From a bacterium (GTDB taxonomy: Bacteria > Patescibacteriota > Minisyncoccia > Phycocordibacterales > Phycocordibacteraceae): 30,778 nt of DNA. The position numbers and the translations under genes were made by a program. The stretch covers positions 1 to 30,778 of the forward strand of contig JAJXUQ010000002.1 of the NCBI GenBank assembly GCA_021782685.1, written 5' to 3'. This document shows positions 12,844 to 23,078 of this stretch, in pieces; position 1 is the stretch's first letter; each line of letters begins with the position of its first letter. The notes below the pieces were generated by a model. The model saw nothing but the letters and a program-made list of their open reading frames with translations. It did not search any database and was not told the DNA's origin.

Positions 12844-12871
12844 TTGAATTCATCACGGAAGATGCTACATT
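12844..12871 (+). promoter_or_regulatory. Promoter for the tRNA-Glu precursor
   Basis: TTGAAT (12844-12849), N16, TG-C-TACATT (12866-12871). Predicted start about 12878. Confidence 0.55.
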
Positions 12872-12877
12872 CAGTGA

Positions 12878-12975
12878 ACGGCCCTATCGTCTAACGGTGG
12901 GTCTCCGGTGCCCGGTCAGGGATTTTCCGTTTTTAAGATAAAGTAACTTCCGTACACGGCCCTATCGTCTAACGG
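12878..12975 (+). repeat. 20-bp direct repeat duplicating the 5' end of tRNA-Glu
   Basis: ACGGCCCTATCGTCTAACGG at 12878-12897 and 12956-12975, 58 nt apart. Confidence 0.95.
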
Positions 12976-13029
12976 CTAGGACAGCGCCCTTTCACGGCGT
13001 AAATCGGGGTTCGATTCCCCGTAGGGTCA
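12958..13029 (+). tRNA. tRNA-Glu(TTC), CCA not encoded; integration target
   Basis: GGCCCTA/TAGGGTC acceptor, GCGCC-CTTTCAC-GGCGT anticodon arm, CGGGG-TTCGATT-CCCCG T arm, discriminator A13029. Confidence 0.95.
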
Positions 13030-14698
13030 CAAAATGTCCGTGGGTACGCTTGTACTCCTCAGAAAGCTTGAAAATACAAGATAGTTTTGGTGTTCCATTA
13101 ACTATTTCGTCGTAGGTCGGGATTTCCTCAAAGAACAGGCCGAAAAGCCGCCTACGGTCGTGCAAACTCTTTGTATTAGCAAGGATTTCCGCCGGGTGTT
13201 CCATAAGGTGCTTTGCGTGCCGTCGAAATGCACGGATGCTACGCTCGTTTACTTCGACGCGGGTTCGCACACTCTCAGCCTTCTCAATCTGCGCCTCAAG
13301 ATCCTCTGCCTCTCCCTCAAGATGGCGACGCATTATTTCTGATTTTGCGAGACCGAAGGCCTCTACTTTCTGGGCAAGCTCAGCTTTCAGATCAGAAACG
13401 CTCCGGCTAATGACCGATGACTGCAAAAGTATTTCCTGCTCACGAGAACGGTATTTATCAACGAGGTGCAGTTCAAGGCCTGCAAGGAACCCGTCCTCAA
13501 ACTTAAGACCAGTGAGGTAGTCGTTCACTGTTTTCTCAAACTCATCCTTCGGGATACGGATGCCTTTATGTGCTCGATTCCCGGTCTTATGACCGCCGCA
13601 ATGATACGCGGGGTATGTCTTGCCAGACTTGCCACGAGAGGCGCTCCCGAGCATTTCTGAACGGCACAATGAGCACAGGATGCATTTCCATGGATACCCA
13701 GGATTATCTTTCATGCGCTTCATCTTCGCCCAGGGCGAGTAGTTAAAAATGATCTTGACCTCACCATCTGGGTTTTCTTGTATGTACTTCTTCCCACGAT
13801 TTGCTTTGTTGAAAATGTCGATGGAAACAAGCCCTTCGTACTGAGCGCGAACAGGTACCTCAGCCCATTTTTCGTGAATGACACCCGCGTATTCCGTTTG
13901 CCCGATATAGCGTTGCATTTGCTTCACAGTCAGTGCGTTGCCTCCGCGAACCCCGATCACCCTTGGATACTCGCGGTCGCTCCTATCCCAATGCTTATTT
14001 TCTATCGTCTTAAATCCCATGGCGTTCAGGGTATCGACGATTTCTTGATCGTCCCTACCGTCTGCGCGCATCTCGAACATCTTACGGAAATAATGCGCTC
14101 GATCGTTTGGCAGTCGTATAACCCTTTTTCTTCCATCCACAAATACTTCCTCGTTCCTCATCCCGTCCGGTGCGCGGCGTAGGGCGTATCCATTGCGGCG
14201 AGCGTGCACCGATCCGCTTATAAGCCGCGTTAGGATTTCACGCGCTTCGGCCTTTGCCTGGTATGCAACAACCATTTCACCGACCTCACCCGGTGAGTAC
14301 CTGCTCCAAGGAAACTCAATCCCAAGATGCTCCAAGGTATTTTTCTCGTCTTGAATGATGCCTTGACTGTCTACGACCGTGACACCTATCTCTTTCAACT
14401 TCTTCTTCATCCGCATGTGTTCTTCATACCCACCGCGTGTGAAGCGATCAATAGATTTACAGACATAAAAGTTAACGGGCTTTTTGCTCGCCCTTATCCA
14501 CGCAAGCACCTCATCGAAATCGTCGCGTTCGGTAGTGGTAGCGGAATGTTGCTTTCGAAATACTTTCAGAATCTCCCAGTCCCGATTGTTCGCCACGCGA
14601 ATACCAACCTTCGTCTGGTCGTCCAGGCCATTCCCTTGAAGTTGCTGTTTATCGCTTACGCGACAGTCGATAACGCAAGTCGGTCGATCGTTCGTCAT
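12992..14698 (-). CDS. Large serine recombinase (integrase), integrated-state form, 568 aa
   Basis: DCRVS catalytic Ser, SIDRFTR, recombinase domain, CSLC..YHC zinc-ribbon region, coiled coil. The last 11 residues are read antisense through tRNA-Glu. Confidence 0.92.
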   Translation of the reverse strand: MTNDRPTCVIDCRVSDKQQLQGNGLDDQTKVGIRVANNRDWEILKVFRKQHSATTTERDDFDEVLAWIRASKKPVNFYVCKSIDRFTRGGYEEHMRMKKKLKEIGVTVVDSQGIIQDEKNTLEHLGIEFPWSRYSPGEVGEMVVAYQAKAEAREILTRLISGSVHARRNGYALRRAPDGMRNEEVFVDGRKRVIRLPNDRAHYFRKMFEMRADGRDDQEIVDTLNAMGFKTIENKHWDRSDREYPRVIGVRGGNALTVKQMQRYIGQTEYAGVIHEKWAEVPVRAQYEGLVSIDIFNKANRGKKYIQENPDGEVKIIFNYSPWAKMKRMKDNPGYPWKCILCSLCRSEMLGSASRGKSGKTYPAYHCGGHKTGNRAHKGIRIPKDEFEKTVNDYLTGLKFEDGFLAGLELHLVDKYRSREQEILLQSSVISRSVSDLKAELAQKVEAFGLAKSEIMRRHLEGEAEDLEAQIEKAESVRTRVEVNERSIRAFRRHAKHLMEHPAEILANTKSLHDRRRLFGLFFEEIPTYDEIVNGTPKLSCIFKLSEEYKRTHGHFVTLRGIEPRFTP

Positions 14699-14707
14699 AG
14701 TGGGTAG

Positions 14708-14923
14708 CTATTTAACAGCGAGTTCGCCGCTGTGGTCAACGACGATTTCTGTGCCAAGCGTGCTCGCGTACGCGTCGAACAACGCATCGGCAAGTTTGCC
14801 CATGCGCTGATTTGCGTCGCGGATCTGCTCATCTGTCATTTCTTCTGCAGATGATCCCAACGCCGCCCTGAATTCTGCGTCTGATACCACGGCATATAGC
14901 CGGGAAATTGCAGGCCGCTTCAA
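14708..14923 (-). CDS. Small helical protein immediately upstream of the recombinase (71 aa, start uncertain)
   Basis: VSDAEFRAALGSSAEEMTDEQIRD..LADALFDAY; co-oriented, stop 9 nt before the integrase ATG. A directionality-factor or regulator role is only a guess. Confidence 0.6.
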   Translation of the reverse strand: MKRPAISRLYAVVSDAEFRAALGSSAEEMTDEQIRDANQRMGKLADALFDAYASTLGTEIVVDHSGELAVK

Positions 14924-15535
14924 ACAAACCTCAAAGGTCGAAAAATCGACCCCTCAGGTTTAATTGCTCGTATCCCACAATTCTTAAGAAGATGTTGGCG
15001 TATCTCCTCCTTGCACTTAGGAGGACAAAAACTTCCCGCTATCGACGACCGTATTTTCAATTTGCCCGGCTGGATATAGTCAATCACAGCGCAACGCTGA
15101 TCGCAACCGGTTTTTCACTGCACCAGTGCAGTAAGTACCGAACAATCTTGCAAAATCTCGCATCGCATTTTGGGCGTATGTGGCTCATTTGCTAAACTTC
15201 CCCTCATTTGGGCAATGCGACATTTCTAGAAGTACCCGACATTTTCCGACATTGCCTTTTCCCTCTAACTTTGGCCTAGCGCCTATGTTTTCGAACGCAA
15301 AAGGTTCGGGATTTCGATGTCGGATTATTCGCGAGCTCTGGCAGAAAGGCGACATAAAGCGACATTGCTGTTTTCCAAGAGATCGGCTTATTTGCGGGGC
15401 TTTCTACAGAAAACGACCGGTTTTGCCCATGTCGTATTTTCTCGAAGCGGATCTGGGTGCCCTAAAAAGCGGCCTTGGACACGAGTTTAGGGTCGTCCTG
15501 CAGTCATGCCACCCGCCAGCCGCTCAAAACGGCCT

Positions 15536-15895
15536 CTAACCCAACTTCCCAAACCGCGCGTCGTTGATGATCTGCTCCCACGAGGCGAAGTAGAGAGGGG
15601 CAATGCGTGAGGCCAACCCCATAGCCCAGTTGTTTATTGAGCGATGTTCGATCTTTGCCTTTTTCTCTGTGCCGTTTGCGCGGTAGAACACGATGAGGTG
15701 CTCAACGCCATTCCCATAGCCCTTCTGCGCGTTTGCACTCACGATGTCTGTGAGCGGGATCTCAAAGACGCGAGCACCTTTCTTCGTCTCGAAAGAGAGG
15801 TTCGCGCGGCTGAGTACGAGCGCCCCCTTTTTGGTGTTGAGGAAGCCGCCCTTGTAGAGGAGCTTGTCCTCCTTTTTCAAAATCTGTTCTGGCAT
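15536..15895 (-). CDS. PH/GRAM-like domain protein (119 aa)
   Basis: KGALVLSRANLSFE..VFEIPLTDIVS pattern of bacterial PH-like folds. Confidence 0.65.
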   Translation of the reverse strand: MPEQILKKEDKLLYKGGFLNTKKGALVLSRANLSFETKKGARVFEIPLTDIVSANAQKGYGNGVEHLIVFYRANGTEKKAKIEHRSINNWAMGLASRIAPLYFASWEQIINDARFGKLG

Positions 15896-16070
15896 GATGT
15901 TGCGCTAATGAGTAAGCGCAATGGGTAGCAGAAAGCCCACCGCGTGGCGCGACCGTTTCCAGCCGTGGCCTGACAAGGCAAAACCCACACGATGGGCTTT
16001 CTGCTCTTGTCAGGTCTTTGAGCCATGCCGGTAGCCGTAGCGACCGGTTTAGGCTCTGCCTCTTTGGGCG
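15896..16070 (-). ncRNA. Structured 5' leader or antisense-type regulatory RNA
   Basis: Downstream of TG-T-TAAAAT (16085-16077); three hairpins plus a 12-nt perfect alternative pairing. Confidence 0.5.
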
Positions 16071-16132
16071 TCTGAGATTTTAACACAAAACGGCTTGGAG
16101 TTCGTCGGTAGTCATCGTGGTAATCTATCTAA

Positions 16133-16858
16133 ATGAGGGCAAGAAAGATGGCTCCTAAACGATCCGAAGGTGCCAACCTGACTAAGATCATTGCTGGCTT
16201 GAAGCGGCAAATTATAAGTCTTGGCCAACTCCATTATCAGTCGCAAAAAGATACAAACTTCAAGGAGTGGCGGGAACGAACACTCTATCTCTTGAAACTT
16301 GGTTTTGGCGGTGGGAAAGAATACGAGGATGTTGACGATGCGATTGAGAAAATGCCGGAGAAAGATGACACGGAGGGTCGCTACACAGATAACGAGAGGT
16401 ACAAGTACTGGCTTGAGGATGAAGATGGTTCCGATGACGGCGAGGAGGGCAAGTTTAACGAAGATCGTTGGAAAAAAGATTACACCGACGCTAAAAATTG
16501 GATACAGAGACTTTTGAAACTTCGGATCGAGGAACTAGAGCTCCTGACGACGGAGAGTTCGGTGCCCGAGAGACCAAGAGGTAGTAAAAATGTACAGATC
16601 GCCACCCAAGTAGTTGATGTAAAAATAGATCTCTCCACAGAAGTAAACCACTTGGTGGGTTTTGTTCACGAAAACGAGCCGGATCCGAGTAAAGCCAAGG
16701 AGGCAGAGGAAAAAATTAGAGCCCTCGAAAGTGAGTTGAAGCAAAAGTCTTCCCGTTGGAGCGAGGTTAAAGAGCTTTTGATCTGGATCGCTAACTACAG
16801 CAAGGATTTATTTTTGAAGGCATTGCCAATTATTCTGGCGCACTACGGAATAAAATAG
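16133..16858 (+). CDS. Hypothetical island protein with acidic central tract (241 aa)
   Basis: Long ORF; TG-G-TAATCT 6 nt before ATG; AT-rich codons. No family recognised. Confidence 0.75.
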   Translation: MRARKMAPKRSEGANLTKIIAGLKRQIISLGQLHYQSQKDTNFKEWRERTLYLLKLGFGGGKEYEDVDDAIEKMPEKDDTEGRYTDNERYKYWLEDEDGSDDGEEGKFNEDRWKKDYTDAKNWIQRLLKLRIEELELLTTESSVPERPRGSKNVQIATQVVDVKIDLSTEVNHLVGFVHENEPDPSKAKEAEEKIRALESELKQKSSRWSEVKELLIWIANYSKDLFLKALPIILAHYGIK

Positions 16859-16868
16859 TGATCTGCGA

Positions 16869-19229
16869 TTACTTGCCCAGAACATCTTTTAGGCCTTGGT
16901 ACGCCGGGTCAGCTGATAGGCCTTTCTTGATGAAATCGATGTCCAGCTTCCCGTCTTTTACAGGAAGAGCGATCTTTACATCCTTGCGAAGTTTTTGCTC
17001 GTTGCACTTTCGGAAGTATGAAAAGCGCCAACTAGACTGGTTAAACGCTGAACACACAAACAACTTGGCCTCAAGAGAGCTGTACTCAGGCTTCAGTTTG
17101 CATACGAGAATGTCGGCAACCGCTGAAAATTTGTAGGGGTGATAGAACGCTCGGTATTTTGAACCGTTCGCTGGTATCGTTATTAAATCCTCGAAGACTG
17201 TGGCCTTGCCAGGATCAAAGTACCCGCCAATCCCGTTGTTTTCTTCTGTGGTAGTAATCACAGGAACTGAGCCAGGACTCAACTGGTTCAGGGGCGGACA
17301 ATCTCCTCGGAACACATCTTCAATAAGATCTCCCATGTCTACGACCTTGAAATTGCCTTTTGCGAGGGTGAGATGATCTGGCCGCTTTTCTCGTAAGAGA
17401 ACATTGAAAAGATTTGATGCGGTGGTGGATATATCAATTCCACTCTCAACATTATCGTCGAGATACGCTTCTGCGCCGCAGTCCATAGTCGGATCGGTGA
17501 GGCTCACTTCTTTGAAGCCAAGCACCTTAGGCGTTTTCTCAGGCTCCTTATCTAGCAACAGGAATTCTCGCAATCTCTCAAGAATGAGTGGCATGTTCGA
17601 AGGCACATTGTCATTCTGAAGCCGCTTCGACTTCTTCATGGAAAATCCATCATCCATGATCGCCCAAAGAACTTTCTTATTATCGTGAGGTTTCCACGCT
17701 TCTAAAACTACCGCGTAAGTTCCTTTGTGAGCATTCGGTAGGAAGAGGTCGTCGGATAGCTTAATAACTGCCCTGAGCGTATGGCGTTTGAGCAAGTTTG
17801 TGCGCCATGTGATCTCACCGCGTCCATCGTCCGTTGATGACATGGTGGATGCCGGAAGAATAGCGAATAACTGCCCTCCATCAACCATCTGCGCCAACGC
17901 GTGGTCAACGAACTTCCATTCGGGATCAGAGAGCGCAAAGGGCGGGTTCATCAGCGTACGCGAGATAAACCTCTCAGGAGCTTTCCCATCCTTTAGCATT
18001 TTTTCGTACTCTTTCTGTTTGACGCGCTTTGCTTCACCCCCGATCCTGAAGAAATAGTTATCGAAAGTGTTGCCTTCGAAGATGTTGCTGTTGCCGTCTC
18101 CTCGGAAAATCATGTTAACAAGAGCGAGGCCGACAACCTCTGGGTCTTGTTCCATTCCATAAATGTGCGACTTCTTGAAACTATCTATCACCTTAGGGGA
18201 TGTTTTTTTGACGCGATCGAGTGCCGCAACCAAGAAGCCGCCCGTACCACAGGTCGGATCATAAATGTAATCTTTCTCGCTCACGCTCAACGCATCCGCC
18301 GCAAAGCGCGTGATGTGTCGAGGCGTTAAGACGATGCCAATCTCTTTCGCATCATTCGCGTATTTGAGGAAGATCTCATAGAACTGCCCGAGCAAGTCCG
18401 ACCCGCTATTGATAGCGGATTTTATGTTGATACTCCGAAGCTCTTGGATGCAGTCAACGAGTGCTCGTCGGTTTTTCCTATGATTATCGCGCGATGTTGG
18501 GAGACTGATTGCAATTTCTTGCGCGAAGTTCTCCTTTCCGTATTCGCTCAAAAGGGAGCGCACGCGAGAGTTTATATCGTTGATTAGGGTAGTCGGATCA
18601 TCGCTGATAGTCATGTAATCGTCATTCACCAGAGCAAGCAAGAGTGAAGCGATAACGCGAGCACGATTGCGTTTGTTGATTGCGCCATCATGGAGCATCT
18701 GATTTATCGTGTTTGCTTTCTCTATGAAAAGCTCGGCTGAAATCTCTTGATCTCGGACATTCGGATCGTTGCTCTTGATGATTTCCAGGGCTTGCTCGCG
18801 TGTGATGAAGCCCGTAGTGTCGATCCCGTTTATCTGAACACGCTCCCAGGTTTTGCCATTAAAAAAATAGGTCTCAACCAAGAAGGTTGTGTTTTCGTGC
18901 CCGGCCACACCCGTAGCGAATGGACATTTTACGCTTTCTCCCGCGCTAATCTTATCTGCATAGTCGACTTGCGCCTCCCGTACTGCTTTCGCCAACTCTT
19001 TATGTTCGGCCTTAGCTTCGATTGCCCAATAGACACCTTCGGAGACCTTCACCAGATTTTCCGGCTTCCCGCCGTCAAGTAATGGCTTAAGAACTCGATC
19101 ATGGAGCGCTTCGTTTTGCGTGAAGACCTGACCATCCGCATGTTTAAGCGGACTCCTGATGTCCCACCCAAGATCCTCTAGGGACTTTAGGATGAACGGA
19201 TAGGCGCGGAACTCTGAATTTTTGGACAC
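16869..19229 (-). CDS. Single-chain restriction-modification enzyme: nuclease, N6-adenine methyltransferase and one target-recognition domain (BcgI-alpha-like/Type IIG, 786 aa)
   Basis: PE..IEAK..EAQVDY nuclease motif, LTPRHI, YDPTCGTGGFL (motif I), MNPPF (motif IV), C-terminal HsdS-like VPVITTTEENNG. Start set at GTG 19229, 6 nt after TACAAT. Confidence 0.88.
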   Translation of the reverse strand: MSKNSEFRAYPFILKSLEDLGWDIRSPLKHADGQVFTQNEALHDRVLKPLLDGGKPENLVKVSEGVYWAIEAKAEHKELAKAVREAQVDYADKISAGESVKCPFATGVAGHENTTFLVETYFFNGKTWERVQINGIDTTGFITREQALEIIKSNDPNVRDQEISAELFIEKANTINQMLHDGAINKRNRARVIASLLLALVNDDYMTISDDPTTLINDINSRVRSLLSEYGKENFAQEIAISLPTSRDNHRKNRRALVDCIQELRSINIKSAINSGSDLLGQFYEIFLKYANDAKEIGIVLTPRHITRFAADALSVSEKDYIYDPTCGTGGFLVAALDRVKKTSPKVIDSFKKSHIYGMEQDPEVVGLALVNMIFRGDGNSNIFEGNTFDNYFFRIGGEAKRVKQKEYEKMLKDGKAPERFISRTLMNPPFALSDPEWKFVDHALAQMVDGGQLFAILPASTMSSTDDGRGEITWRTNLLKRHTLRAVIKLSDDLFLPNAHKGTYAVVLEAWKPHDNKKVLWAIMDDGFSMKKSKRLQNDNVPSNMPLILERLREFLLLDKEPEKTPKVLGFKEVSLTDPTMDCGAEAYLDDNVESGIDISTTASNLFNVLLREKRPDHLTLAKGNFKVVDMGDLIEDVFRGDCPPLNQLSPGSVPVITTTEENNGIGGYFDPGKATVFEDLITIPANGSKYRAFYHPYKFSAVADILVCKLKPEYSSLEAKLFVCSAFNQSSWRFSYFRKCNEQKLRKDVKIALPVKDGKLDIDFIKKGLSADPAYQGLKDVLGK

Positions 19230-19343
19230 ATACAAATTGTACCTGGACTTCCCGGAAAAGGACAGGACTCCCTTTGGAATAACCCGTGTTCTATTAGGAG
19301 TGGGGTAATGAGATCTTCTCCCGACCGCCAGAATAGCCATGCT

Positions 19344-19450
19344 CTACGAAGCCATTTCGGGCTCAACCTCATCAAGCCCAAGTAAGTCAGACATAGATTG
19401 CCAGTCGAGCACCATTCTTTCCATAGTGTTCCATTCCAGGTACTCTATGT
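19344..19450 (-). other. Detached 3' end of the recombinase gene (35 codons plus TAG), in frame only in the excised circle
   Basis: Reads NIEYLEWNTMERMVLDWQSMSDLLGLDEVEPEMAS* when fused through TCACAA to ..HGHFV of 12992-14698. Confidence 0.7.
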
Positions 19451-20149
19451 TCACAACCTCCCTCCGTCTCTTTCAATCGACTCGATCTTGCCGTCTTCGA
19501 GGCGGATGACGCGGTCGACGTAGCGGCGATCGTCGGGCTCGTGCGTAACCATCACGATCGTCTGCCCCATATCAGTCTGAAGCTTCTTGAAGAGGTCGAG
19601 AACGACCTTGGCCGAGGCCGTGTCGAGGTTGGCGGCAGGCTCGTCGGCAAAGAGGATATCGGGCTCGTTGATGAGCGCCCGCGCGATCGCGACGCGCTGC
19701 TGTTCGCCGCCCGAGAGCTCATCCGGATAATGGCGGAGCTGGTCGCCGAGGCCGACGATCTCGAGAAGCTCGGTAGCGCGCTTCTCATAGGCGGCCGAGG
19801 CGGTGCCGAACGCCATCGCCGGAAGTATCACGTTCTCTATCGCCGAGAGTTCTACGATGAGCGCGTACTCCTGGAAGATGTACCCGAGATGCTCGAGGCG
19901 GTACTCGGTCTTCGCCGCGTCCGAGAGCGCGAGGACGTCGTCGCCCTGGATGCGGAGACTCCCTCCCGTGGGCGTATCGAGGAGCGAGAGCTGATGGAGG
20001 AGAGTCGACTTCCCCGACCCGCTCCTGCCCATAATGGCGACGAACTCCCCACGCTCGACAGCAAAGGAGACGCCGCGGAGAGCGCGCGTGGGCACTTCGC
20101 CCGGATAGGTGCGTTCGAGATCCTTCACGACGAGCATAGGTTCAGACAT
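19451..20149 (-). CDS. ABC transporter ATP-binding protein, LolD/MacB type
   Basis: GRSGSGKS Walker A, LSGGEQQRVAIARAL, ILFADEP, MVTHE. Confidence 0.95.
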   Translation of the reverse strand: MSEPMLVVKDLERTYPGEVPTRALRGVSFAVERGEFVAIMGRSGSGKSTLLHQLSLLDTPTGGSLRIQGDDVLALSDAAKTEYRLEHLGYIFQEYALIVELSAIENVILPAMAFGTASAAYEKRATELLEIVGLGDQLRHYPDELSGGEQQRVAIARALINEPDILFADEPAANLDTASAKVVLDLFKKLQTDMGQTIVMVTHEPDDRRYVDRVIRLEDGKIESIERDGGRL

Positions 20150-20158
20150 ATCTCATTA

Positions 20159-21382
20159 TCACCCCCATATGGCTTTGAGGATCTTCTCTCGGGCGACGAG
20201 CCGCGCGGGGACCACTCCCGCAAGGAAACCGGCAATAAAGAAGCCGGTGACGCTTTCAGCCAAGAGCTTCCCGCTGAAGGAAAACTGCATGGGGCCGAAG
20301 GGCAGCATGATGGGATGCCGGGTGAGGATCGGCAGGAGGATGCCGAAGATGAAGATAAGCCCCGTACCGACGCCGCAGGCGACATAGAAGAGCGACTGGA
20401 AGACATAGGAATAGACGATAACGCCCTCTTTGATCCCGATCGCCTTCAGGATCCCGATCTGCCGGCGTTTGCTCACGGCGTTTATGTAAATCATGACGAA
20501 GATGGTCACTGCCGCGACCGCGACCGAGATGACGCTCACGATGAGCGCGATGAGCGTGAAAGCATCCAGGGCGGATTGGATCACGGCGAGGAGTTCGGGA
20601 TACGCTTGCACCTTGAGCGAAGGATAGAGCGCCTCTATGCGCGCCTTGTAGTAACTGAGCGGATGAAGATTCTCGTCGACCTTCACGAGAATCTCGGAAG
20701 CCTGGTTGGAAGTGGAGAGGACCGACTTGGCCTCGCGCGCGGTGATATAGGTGTTGGTAAGCGCGGTGCCGAAGGTGATGTTCACGATCCCCTTCACCGT
20801 GTATTGACGCGAGACGCCGTTGCCGTAGACCACGGTCACCTTGTCACCGACCTTAGCACCTCCGAGGTCAGTAGGTACGGGGAGCCCGTAGCCGCCCGCA
20901 AGCGCGGCCGGCAGGAGGATTTGATCCGTATCCTCCGGCGTAAGGAACTGTCCGGCAACAAGATACCGCTTGAGCGAGAGCGCATCGTCGACTTCCGCGG
21001 GGTCGATGCCGATGATCTGCGCGGAGACGCGCTTGTAGACGCCATTCTTCTCGGGGTCGTAGGAGATCGATCCGGCAGTGAGATAAATGCGCGTGGTGCC
21101 GAGGACACCCGGGATCGTCCCGATCTCCGCGCGCGTCTGCCGCTCGTCGCTTATGAACTGCTTCGGCACCGGAAACTGTTCGGGCGAGACGACGATGCTT
21201 GAGGTGGTCGTCTTGGTGAGGAGGCCGGTGATGGTCGCGAGCAGGCCGGAGAAGACGCTCGGCACAAACATCATGTTGAAAAACGAGAGCGAGAGGATGA
21301 GGAGCATGAGAGCGAGCGTGCCGCGCCGCCCGCGCTTGATCGACTTGTACGCGATGAAGAATGCAGTGCGGAGCCCGTTCAT
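20159..21382 (-). CDS. FtsX/MacB-like ABC permease
   Basis: N-terminal TM, large extracytoplasmic domain, KRRQIGILKAIG, three C-terminal TMs. Confidence 0.9.
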   Translation of the reverse strand: MNGLRTAFFIAYKSIKRGRRGTLALMLLILSLSFFNMMFVPSVFSGLLATITGLLTKTTTSSIVVSPEQFPVPKQFISDERQTRAEIGTIPGVLGTTRIYLTAGSISYDPEKNGVYKRVSAQIIGIDPAEVDDALSLKRYLVAGQFLTPEDTDQILLPAALAGGYGLPVPTDLGGAKVGDKVTVVYGNGVSRQYTVKGIVNITFGTALTNTYITAREAKSVLSTSNQASEILVKVDENLHPLSYYKARIEALYPSLKVQAYPELLAVIQSALDAFTLIALIVSVISVAVAAVTIFVMIYINAVSKRRQIGILKAIGIKEGVIVYSYVFQSLFYVACGVGTGLIFIFGILLPILTRHPIMLPFGPMQFSFSGKLLAESVTGFFIAGFLAGVVPARLVAREKILKAIWG

Positions 21383-22905
21383 GATCCGGTCACGACCTTC
21401 TCCCCTGCAGAGAGTCCGGAGAGGATCTCGGCCATGCCGTCCTGGCTTTTGATGCCGACGGTAACTGCGCGCGTGACCGGCACGCCGTTCTCGAGCACCA
21501 TGACGGTCGTCGACGTCCCTGTAGAGGCGAGCGCACTCACCGGGACTATAAGCGCGCTAGATGAAGAGGCGGTCTCGATCCACGCGTTCGCCGTCATTCC
21601 TGCGCGGATGTCCGGGTAATCTTTGGCGAAAAAGATCGTGGTCTGATAGTAGACCGCGCCGCCCACGATGGTCGCGGCCGGATCGATCTCGCTGACGGTG
21701 CCGTTAAAGACAGTGCCGGCGGGAAAAGCGTCGAGCTCGATTGTGGCTGGATCGCCCACCGCAACCTCGACCACGTTATCCTCGGAAACATTCACTTTGA
21801 CCTCGAGCTTGGCATCAGGCATGAGCGAGACAACGGCAGTATTCGGGCCTACAACCTCGCCGACGGTACCGTTCGTATCGGTAATCGTGCCAGAGGCGGG
21901 TGCAATGATCTCGAGATCACGAATCTGTGCCGCGATAGCATCTGCGTTCGCTTGGGCTGCCGCGACCGCTGCCGTCTGTGCGTCGATGCTCGTCTGGGTC
22001 GAGCTGGCGGTAGTGAGATTAAGCGAGGCATTAGCCGAAGCGACGGAAGTCTCGGCGAGCGCGATCGAGTGCTCAAGCGCCTGTACTTCGGCGAGCGCAG
22101 CATTCACCTCCGAGAGACCGGTCGCGGCGCTCGCGCGATAGGCGGTAGCATCGGTAGTCGAGAGGCTGACGCTCTTTCCCGCCGCGCTTACCGCATCGGT
22201 GAGAAGCGCTTGGAGATTGCTTATGCTGTTGTCCGCGCTCGCGAGCGCGGCGTCGAGAACAGCGGGCGTCGCGGTTGCAGCGGGAATCCGCGCGAGCGCC
22301 GCGAGAGTCTCGTTCGCCGCCGCGCGCTCGGCGACGATCCGATTCTTGAGCGCAAAGTCGCCAAGATCGAAGGTGAGCACGGGATTGTTCGTGTTTCCGT
22401 TCGTGAAGAAGCGCGCGAGCTGGTTCACCACCGCGTCATTCGCTTTTGCTGAAGCGTCGGCGAGTGTTGAACCCACGGTGGCGTAGGCATTCGCGAGCGA
22501 TTGCTCGGCCGAGGCGAGCGCAGCCTGGGAGACGGCGATGGTTTGCGGTGTCGCGCCGCCCTCGAGCGTCCCGAGCGCCGCCTGCGCGGCAGAGACATTC
22601 GCGCGCGCCTGCGTATACTGCGCCTCGAGCACGCTCGCGTCCTGTTTGGCGAGGACCGCGCCGGCAGCGACATGCTGCCCCACCGAGACAGTGAGCGCGA
22701 CAATCTTGCCGCTCGCCTTGAAGGCGAGATCTGCCGTGGTCGGCGACTCAACGTTTCCGCTTGCGAACGCTTCTTCGACAATCGGCGCGCGCACGACTGC
22801 GGCGGTGGTATAGCTCGCGCGCGGCCAAGAGATGTACGCAACGGCCGCGATCGTGCCCACGACGATCGCAGCTAAGACCACGACACGCCGGGACACGGTT
22901 TCCAT
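21379..22905 (-). CDS. MacA/HlyD-like efflux adaptor subunit with long helical region (508 aa)
   Basis: ADLAFKASGKI..VSVGQHV and IIAPASGTI lipoyl halves, VNVSEDNV, VTVGI..AEILSGLSAGEKV. Start ATG 22905. Confidence 0.88.
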   Translation of the reverse strand: METVSRRVVVLAAIVVGTIAAVAYISWPRASYTTAAVVRAPIVEEAFASGNVESPTTADLAFKASGKIVALTVSVGQHVAAGAVLAKQDASVLEAQYTQARANVSAAQAALGTLEGGATPQTIAVSQAALASAEQSLANAYATVGSTLADASAKANDAVVNQLARFFTNGNTNNPVLTFDLGDFALKNRIVAERAAANETLAALARIPAATATPAVLDAALASADNSISNLQALLTDAVSAAGKSVSLSTTDATAYRASAATGLSEVNAALAEVQALEHSIALAETSVASANASLNLTTASSTQTSIDAQTAAVAAAQANADAIAAQIRDLEIIAPASGTITDTNGTVGEVVGPNTAVVSLMPDAKLEVKVNVSEDNVVEVAVGDPATIELDAFPAGTVFNGTVSEIDPAATIVGGAVYYQTTIFFAKDYPDIRAGMTANAWIETASSSSALIVPVSALASTGTSTTVMVLENGVPVTRAVTVGIKSQDGMAEILSGLSAGEKVVTGS

Positions 22906-23004
22906 ACACTTAGTATACACTGCGTGCCGCCAAAATCCGGTGTACATGCGGGCAAACGGCGCTCTTTCCGCATAGTACCGCTCATGGTATAGTCCTTCTA
23001 TCTC

Positions 23005-23077
23005 GCGCGGTTAGCTCAGTTGGTAGAGCGCTACATTGACGTTGTAGATGTCGGGGGTTCGAATCCCTCACCGCGCA
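23005..23077 (+). tRNA. tRNA-Val(GAC), CCA not encoded
   Basis: GCGCGGT/ACCGCGC acceptor, CTACA-TTGACGT-TGTAG anticodon arm, TTCGAAT T loop; TG-G-TATAGT promoter at 22985-22993. Confidence 0.95.
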
Positions 23078-23078
23078 C

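Follow-up and report, generated by a model that had tools for sequence, protein, structure and literature searches.

A tRNA-targeting serine integrase of Patescibacteria whose gene appears to contain its own attachment site and to exchange its 3' end on insertion

By its published description, a close counterpart of the element reported here is the DsiB system of Dehalococcoides, in which small islands are likewise inserted by a large serine recombinase (CcrB-like), the target being the 3' terminus of a tRNA-like gene. McMurdie et al. (2011, PMC3146451) reported that the 3' end of dsiB invariably overlaps with attL, with the stop codon outside the island, and speculated that a fully functional or complete DsiB is made only from the circle or where a further island adjoins. 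Two types of tyrosine integrase also have attP within the integrase gene, namely IntP/IntX of Mx8 (Tojo et al. 1996, as cited in PMC4383910) and the SSV-type enzymes (PMC7253208), integration altering the enzyme in the case of Mx8 and splitting it in the case of SSV. A related situation is the integration-dependent immunity of mycobacteriophage BPs and its relatives, where attP lies in the 3' end of a gene and integration leads to a C-terminally different protein with different properties (PMC4557955, PMC3694055). In the Islander study of 2014 (PMC4383910) serine integrases were not known to target tRNA genes, and a description of such tRNA-targeting enzymes in Patescibacteria was not found in the literature searched. 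Here we analysed a stretch of 30,778 nt from the chromosome of an ultra-small bacterium belonging to the Patescibacteria (positions 1 to 30,778 of contig JAJXUQ010000002.1, assembly GCA_021782685.1; this whole stretch is called the window in the following). It harbours an integrative island of 6424 bp (bases 13033–19456), and we consider it very probable that this is a mobile island with attP inside its large serine integrase gene, the C-terminal tail of the enzyme being swapped on insertion.

In the integrated state the integrase open reading frame (ORF) ends with ..HGHFV-TLRGIEPRFTP*, and its last 11 codons together with the stop codon are antisense to the acceptor, T arm and anticodon-loop region of a tRNA-Glu. 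After the two TCACAA cores at the ends of the island had been joined by a script, a circle of 6424 bp was obtained in which the same ORF stays in frame across the joint and is extended by 35 codons, resulting in a protein of 592 amino acids with the end ..HGHFV-NIEYLEWNT...EMAS*. The detached tail is located at the island's far end, and it is solely in this excised circle that it becomes an in-frame continuation of the integrase ORF. The original prediction had described the tRNA, the 568-aa ORF, the cores, the circle and the 592-aa frame in the same way, and every one of these sequence statements was correct on recheck. As the chance of finding 35 open codons is about 0.19 and a 6-nt identity is also trivial, the open frame and the core are weak evidence when taken alone, and thus the tails of homologous integrases have to decide.

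The explanation that we propose is as follows. The island would have been placed by its own large serine integrase at the very 3' terminus of tRNA-Glu(UUC). Its attP would lie within the integrase gene, 35 codons ahead of the stop codon, and strand exchange would take place within GTGA (integrase strand), the exchanged dinucleotide most likely being GA or TG, which corresponds to TC or CA on the tRNA strand. Such an exchange would spare the tRNA and the stop codon of the adjoining ABC-transporter ATPase gene and would cut the integrase ORF, leaving a chromosomal form of 568 aa that ends after 11 antisense-tRNA residues. The true tail of 35 residues with its conserved amphipathic helix would be stranded at the far end beside a restriction gene, and the complete enzyme of 592 aa would be encoded solely by the excised circle. 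Where a further member of the family follows the integrase gene immediately, as in a tandem array, a full-length enzyme carrying the tail of that member would be expected.

Using a search of 5.8 billion proteins we obtained more than 1400 relatives of the integrase, and the best 120 of them, being 41–66% identical, were examined. As many as 98 of these 120 have C-termini that read as antisense tRNA (T arm), such as ..LV-TLRGIEPRF.., ..LV-TLPGIEPGF.. or ..LV-TLQRIEL. A longer tail of the WNT type (L-x-W-N-T-x-E-x-x-V-L-x-W-x-x-V-F) is present in 14 of the 120, and the rebuilt tail of the window aligns with all 14 without gaps; homologues thus do carry the EWNT-like tails that the original prediction had proposed to look for. 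Moreover, a hidden Markov model (HMM) built from the tails of the other proteins, with the window left out, matches 19347–19472 on the minus strand with E=3.4e-8 among 44,693 six-frame fragments, and this is its sole match in the window. From these comparisons the extra tail is judged to be real coding sequence.

The same arrangement was found when one genome per prokaryotic species was scanned, which gave 73 loci, nearly all of them in metagenome-assembled genomes labelled as Patescibacteria (candidate phyla radiation, CPR) or as unclassified. The tail HMM matches 36 loci at E<1e-4 (38 matches with the HMM made without the window), and every match is on the integrase strand and 0.9–10.9 kb upstream of the integrase gene, i.e. 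at the far end of the element. Across the loci of the family the 3' end of the integrase gene overlaps an antisense tRNA, which in these species representatives abuts 35 of the 45 full-length integrase genes (25 Glu, 4 Trp, 2 Lys, 2 Gln, 1 Ala and 1 Arg). When the V codon was used as the anchor for both junctions, the joined form could be rebuilt in frame in 28 of 28 loci tested (26 automatically, L048 and L036 by eye with the core GTGA), and all rebuilt tails are of the WNT type; the longest common substring had been dropped as an anchor, as it was misled by chance 4-mers. Judging from these sequences, the anatomy with attP in the integrase gene is general across the family. From the anatomy of the junctions, with cores of 3–9 nt, and from the joined-form contigs described below we infer an attP × attB recombination with a 2-bp crossover. 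At 28 loci (L055–L085) just the last 40–200 integrase codons are left and 20 of these 3' fragments still abut an antisense tRNA; they look like decayed elements and, given the tandem cases described below, might still be usable as landing sites.

Joined forms are also found in nature. The tailed integrase P0097 is 93% identical up to the crossover to P0095, which has an antisense-tRNA end. Two contigs encoding P0097, L092 from an NCBI assembly and L093 from an independent Logan assembly, align to the integrated element L025 in two pieces, one consisting of the integrase gene up to GTGA and the other of the far-end remnant starting from the same GTGA, with a 4-nt overlap and 92% identity; the same result was obtained against L027, and over both elements the identity is 85–92%. 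By this alignment both contigs represent the predicted joined (attP) form of a relative. Together with the far-end tails of the 36 relatives and the in-frame rebuilds, they bear out the original prediction of an attachment site inside the integrase gene at which recombination exchanges the C-terminus. Other tailed integrases (P0077, P0050 and P0034) are located among element genes with no tRNA adjoining, P0077 and P0050 in conjugation-type elements. On a 112-kb long-read contig (L086:1-21797) P0077 lies in the middle of such a conjugation-type element with two TrwB/VirD4-like ATPases, a relaxase and an nSTAND NTPase, and a tRNA-Gln is located 9 kb downstream.

An exchange at the window's own integrase was found in a sister population. 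P0121 (589 aa), which falls into the same 90% cluster as the integrase of the window, is 100% identical to it over residues 1–558 and then has a different tail of the WN type. The contig encoding it (L094, from a different assembly) is 99.99% identical to the window from 24698 to 13024 and diverges after TTGTGACCC into ..V-THIRRNWNQAVAELIAWDRL..*. This tail starts exactly at the core, and its DNA is strongly different, the two Trp nine residues apart being kept. It belongs to a second element (L094:11676-12998) with the divergent WN-type tail, a Peptidase_M78 (ImmA/IrrE-type) gene and a gene for 141 aa, the contig ending before the integrase gene of this element. A contig from run X2, in which the match to the window begins at 13024 after 332 unmatched letters, is explained by the same tandem form, and L016 shows the same tandem layout; no second element was found in the window's own assembly. 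Thus, on the sequence of L094, a second element of the family sits between the window's integrase gene and the tRNA in the sister population and gives the integrase a foreign tail. The tandem also means that hybrid (attL-/attR-like) sites can serve as targets.

The tandem arrangement that was suggested by the authors of the DsiB study is therefore seen here for the element of the window, and dsiB has to be regarded as the serine-recombinase precedent that the layout was originally thought to lack. The two systems differ in several respects. The Dehalococcoides islands target ssrA (tmRNA) and have a 20-bp direct repeat, whereas here a tRNA is targeted and the identity comprises 3–9 nt (6 nt in the window). 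They carry the small serine recombinase DsiA, ParB and Mom, whereas a single recombinase is present here and the other ORFs show no such domains. Furthermore, the C-terminal region of DsiB was reported as divergent and a conserved tail was not defined, in contrast to the conserved tail of the family described here. The enzymes of Mx8 and of the SSV-type systems belong to an unrelated family with a different chemistry, and their tRNA is rebuilt by long identities; here the tRNA remains whole and the two sites have just a few bases in common.

Some observations weigh against our explanation, and the first of them concern the junctions. The attP and attB junctions of the window's element were not found among assembled contigs, which are broken at the tRNA; four mine-drainage and tailings sequencing runs carry the element, again as assembled contigs, which says nothing on the absence of these junctions. 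Every contig encoding the identical ABC ATPase also has the element, and an exact empty site was not found, as relatives from the same genus have tRNA-Val and not the ABC operon beside tRNA-Glu. These findings, along with the many decayed relatives, would fit a fixed and immobile relic in which the open rebuilt frame is a leftover. Against such a relic, the integrase gene, the tail and a conserved small upstream ORF are all intact, and the left junction differs between two almost identical assemblies with the second element of L094 exactly at the core, which identifies this junction as a site of recent recombination. We therefore regard a relic as very unlikely.

The other observations that speak against our explanation concern the tail itself. 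Its conservation is partly at the DNA level, as would be shown by an attP arm: near the core the third codon positions are the most conserved ones, and with very few exceptions the tails use AAC for the Asn of the WNT motif and GAA for the Glu, these two codons being 18–30 nt away from the crossover, a distance at which an att arm is to be expected. In addition, the tail helix of a modelled homologue (see below) follows a disordered linker and is placed with moderate confidence only (pLDDT ~62–66), and the truncated forms retain every recognised domain. All this could be explained by genome compaction: attP would by chance overlap with the integrase gene's 3' end, the tail would be kept as DNA of the P' arm that the integrase has to recognise, the peptide would be idle and the forms of 568 and 592 aa equivalent. 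Further away from the core the pattern is a different one. In codons 11–26 the information amounts to 13.4, 19.2 and 7.7 bits at codon positions 1, 2 and 3, a periodicity (2 > 1 > 3) that points to selection on the peptide; conservation reaches about 66 nt from the core, past a usual half-site, and both Trp (codons 8 and 18) are invariant. The W-9-W spacing is even kept in the tail of the second element of L094 with its strongly different DNA. The sequences thus suggest that the tail is conserved at both the protein and the DNA level, and that compaction alone is an unlikely explanation.

What the swapped tail does is a more tentative matter. That it matters for activity, stability or the choice of reaction, so that insertion alters the behaviour of the integrase, is in our view possible, with the balance tilting somewhat to the other side. 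The hypothesis of a directionality or activity switch as a whole, which was raised in the original prediction, stands on similar or slightly weaker ground. In its most specific version, which we put forward as speculative, the tail would be a built-in state sensor: the complete form made from the circle would be competent for insertion or properly regulated, the clipped form would be restricted to excision with the help of a small partner or be inert, and tandem neighbours would control each other's mobility via borrowed tails. By analogy, BPs is a precedent for a state-dependent switch, although there the gene that is cut encodes the repressor, the integrase is a tyrosine recombinase and the effect is the removal of a degradation tag, no such tag being evident here.

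The enzyme itself was analysed by domain searches and with a structural model. Pfam detects an N-terminal Resolvase domain (7.4e-12, residues 12–170), the catalytic domain type that carries the serine nucleophile, in which the CRVSD motif (residues 12–16) is nearly invariant in alignments, and a Recombinase domain (2.2e-7), whereas Zn_ribbon_recom (5e-4) is under the curated cut-off with its Cys positions being invariant. An AlphaFold2 model of a tailed homologue with 59% identity (mean pLDDT 85.7) shows the full architecture of a large serine integrase, including long helices at 409–488, an extra helical region after the coiled coil, a disordered linker (554–571) spanning the crossover and then a helix at 574–587. 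Best Foldseek matches of the model are solved full-length serine-integrase–DNA complexes including PhiC31 and Bxb1 (E down to 5e-16, identity 14–15%); phmmer with the integrase gave no match among solved structures. According to the model the enzyme is a large serine integrase with catalytic domain, recombinase domain and a zinc ribbon with coiled coil. The fold, the domain order, the short att sites and the very short core are shared with SprA of SPbeta, PhiC31, Bxb1, A118/LI and the Ccr enzymes of SCCmec, and the family described here differs from these phage and island enzymes in its extra helical C-terminal region, the swappable tail and the tRNA 3' ends as targets.

In order to locate the crossover we compared the two junctions across the family. 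The block common to both is usually GTGA on the integrase strand, only L015, L016 and L026 having TGA, and the two bases preceding GTGA are often not the same at both ends of an element. As the exchanged dinucleotide has to be identical in both partners, it should be TG or GA, and the crossover is thus probably CA or TC on the tRNA strand, located where the acceptor stem ends and the discriminator follows. A scan for dyad symmetry in rebuilt attP and attB gave two weak peaks, which are centred −1.5 and +3.0 from the G of GTGA, with +3.0 being best for the window alone; these peaks cannot fix the centre by themselves and slightly favour GA. The original prediction had pointed to two GTAC motifs arranged symmetrically around the last AA of the core. 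Their positions (19440–19443 and 13044–13047) stand, but AA as the centre of the crossover does not hold for the cores of the family and the left-arm GTAC is not conserved; both are peculiar to the element of the window.

At the target site the insertion leaves tRNA-Glu(UUC) whole, its last acceptor bases and the discriminator (TCA) falling into the core. On the other side the TGA stop of the convergent ABC ATPase gene is the complement of TCA at 19451–19453 inside the core, as had been predicted originally and as the sequence agrees; this stop is accordingly retained in both the integrated and the excised state. The G+C content is about 0.49 within 13000–19500 and about 0.6 outside, rising from 19500. 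A 3' fragment of tRNA-Glu is absent from the far end of the element, TCACAA alone being common to both ends. In this the island differs from tRNA islands of the tyrosine-integrase type, in which attP copies the 3' part of the tRNA and thereby generates a direct repeat, and its recombinase belongs to the serine class. Of a second, inverted copy of attP there is at most a faint trace: 19232–19247 at the start of the restriction-modification gene and 19435–19450 in the P' arm match over 16 nt in inverted orientation (81%), GTACCTGGA being contained in the match.

The neighbourhood of the tRNA shows traces of further rearrangements. In relatives from the same genus tRNA-Ser, tRNA-Glu and tRNA-Val lie side by side with no ABC ATPase nearby, tRNA-Val following tRNA-Glu within 30–400 bp in several of them. 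In the window an ABC-transporter operon of about 3.5 kb (19457–23004; membrane-fusion protein, FtsX permease and ATPase, with host-like G+C) separates the element from tRNA-Val(GAC) at 23005–23078, and this block may itself be an older insertion or rearrangement. In another genome of the genus (L002, G015:C16) the tRNA-Ser/tRNA-Glu locus likewise harbours a related integrase, with 43% identity over the C-terminal 326 residues; members of the genus have thus had insertions here repeatedly. The first 18 nt of tRNA-Glu and the bases preceding them are duplicated 78 nt upstream of the real gene in a direct repeat of 28 nt (12870–12897 and 12948–12975; 89%, with 20 nt in a row being exact), which might have been left by an earlier rearrangement.

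The cargo of this mobile defence island is a type IIG-like restriction-modification enzyme; the coordinates of all features are listed in Table 1. Two smaller ORFs lie between this gene and the integrase region, and just upstream of the one encoding 119 aa a 21-nt inverted repeat is located (90%, 37-nt loop; 15927–16005). The small ORF preceding the integrase gene was found by jackhmmer directly upstream of the integrase gene and on the same strand at about 47 loci; it has no match in Pfam or PADLOC and is a candidate directionality factor or regulator. In the circle the TAG of the rebuilt integrase gene (19344–19346) would lie 3 nt ahead of the ATG (19340) of the restriction-modification gene. 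This gene order and spacing raise the idea that the exchange acts as an expression switch, the circle coupling the integrase to the restriction-modification gene on entry into a new cell, while in the integrated state integrase transcripts would run antisense to tRNA-Glu and the restriction gene would be read from the host ABC operon; the ABC ATPase gene, the tail remnant and the restriction gene are indeed co-directional. In relatives, however, unrelated genes follow the tail, so that coupling to one cargo is not conserved, and the conserved tail peptide would be left unexplained. We consider such an expression switch quite unlikely, and return to the tail-swapping integrase as the preferred explanation.

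Table 1: Features of the island and its flanks in the window.
Feature	Position	Strand	Basis and remarks
tRNA-Glu(UUC), integration target	12958-13030	+	ARAGORN (ttc); sequence
Large serine integrase, integrated form, 568 aa	12992-14698	-	ORF list; Pfam
attL core TCACAA (integrase strand TTGTGA)	13027-13032		sequence; sister assembly L094; holds the V codon where the two C-termini diverge
P arm of rebuilt attP, within integrase coding sequence (codons ..EEYKRTHGHF)	13033-13075 (approximate)		family alignment of rebuilt attP; extent estimated from att sites of typical size in serine integrases
Small ORF upstream of integrase gene, 71 aa in the ORF list (may start later)	14708-14923	-	jackhmmer
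119-aa cargo ORF	15536-15895	-	gene call in sister contigs too; no Pfam/PADLOC match
241-aa cargo ORF	16133-16858	+	called 236 aa in sister contigs; no Pfam/PADLOC match
Type IIG-like restriction-modification enzyme, 823 aa (N6 methylase and specificity domain)	16869-19340	-	Pfam N6_Mtase 1.3e-30, Methylase_S; PADLOC REase_MTase_IIG 6e-37
Detached integrase 3' end, 35 codons (NIEYLEWNTMERMVLDWQSM...) and TAG; also P' arm of attP	19344-19451	-	sequence, tail HMM, gap-free alignment, codon periodicity
attR core TCACAA	19451-19456		sequence
ABC-transporter ATPase ORF, host, flanks the element	19451-20149	-	ORF list, Pfam, G+C
Predicted junction of the circle			..CTCTATGT-TCACAA-AATGTCC..
Predicted junction of the empty site			..GTAGGG-TCACAA-CCTCCC..

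Serine integrases are valued tools in genome engineering as they are unidirectional, and how their direction is set is an active structural question. The family described here, with more than 1000 members in the databases, targets the ends of tRNA genes and, on our explanation, would rewrite its own C-terminus at each insertion and excision. For annotation this is a warning, because the C-termini of these integrases in the databases are mostly antisense tRNA. If both forms of the enzyme were equal, the element would still be a clean example of an att site embedded in a coding sequence. If the reading of the tail as a state sensor were true, it would represent a directionality device at the protein level in serine integrases for which a separate factor is not needed. 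If the two forms indeed differ, this would be a natural self-limiting integrase, and the spread of minimal defence islands in ultra-small bacteria, together with their stacking behind tRNA genes, could be explained by it.

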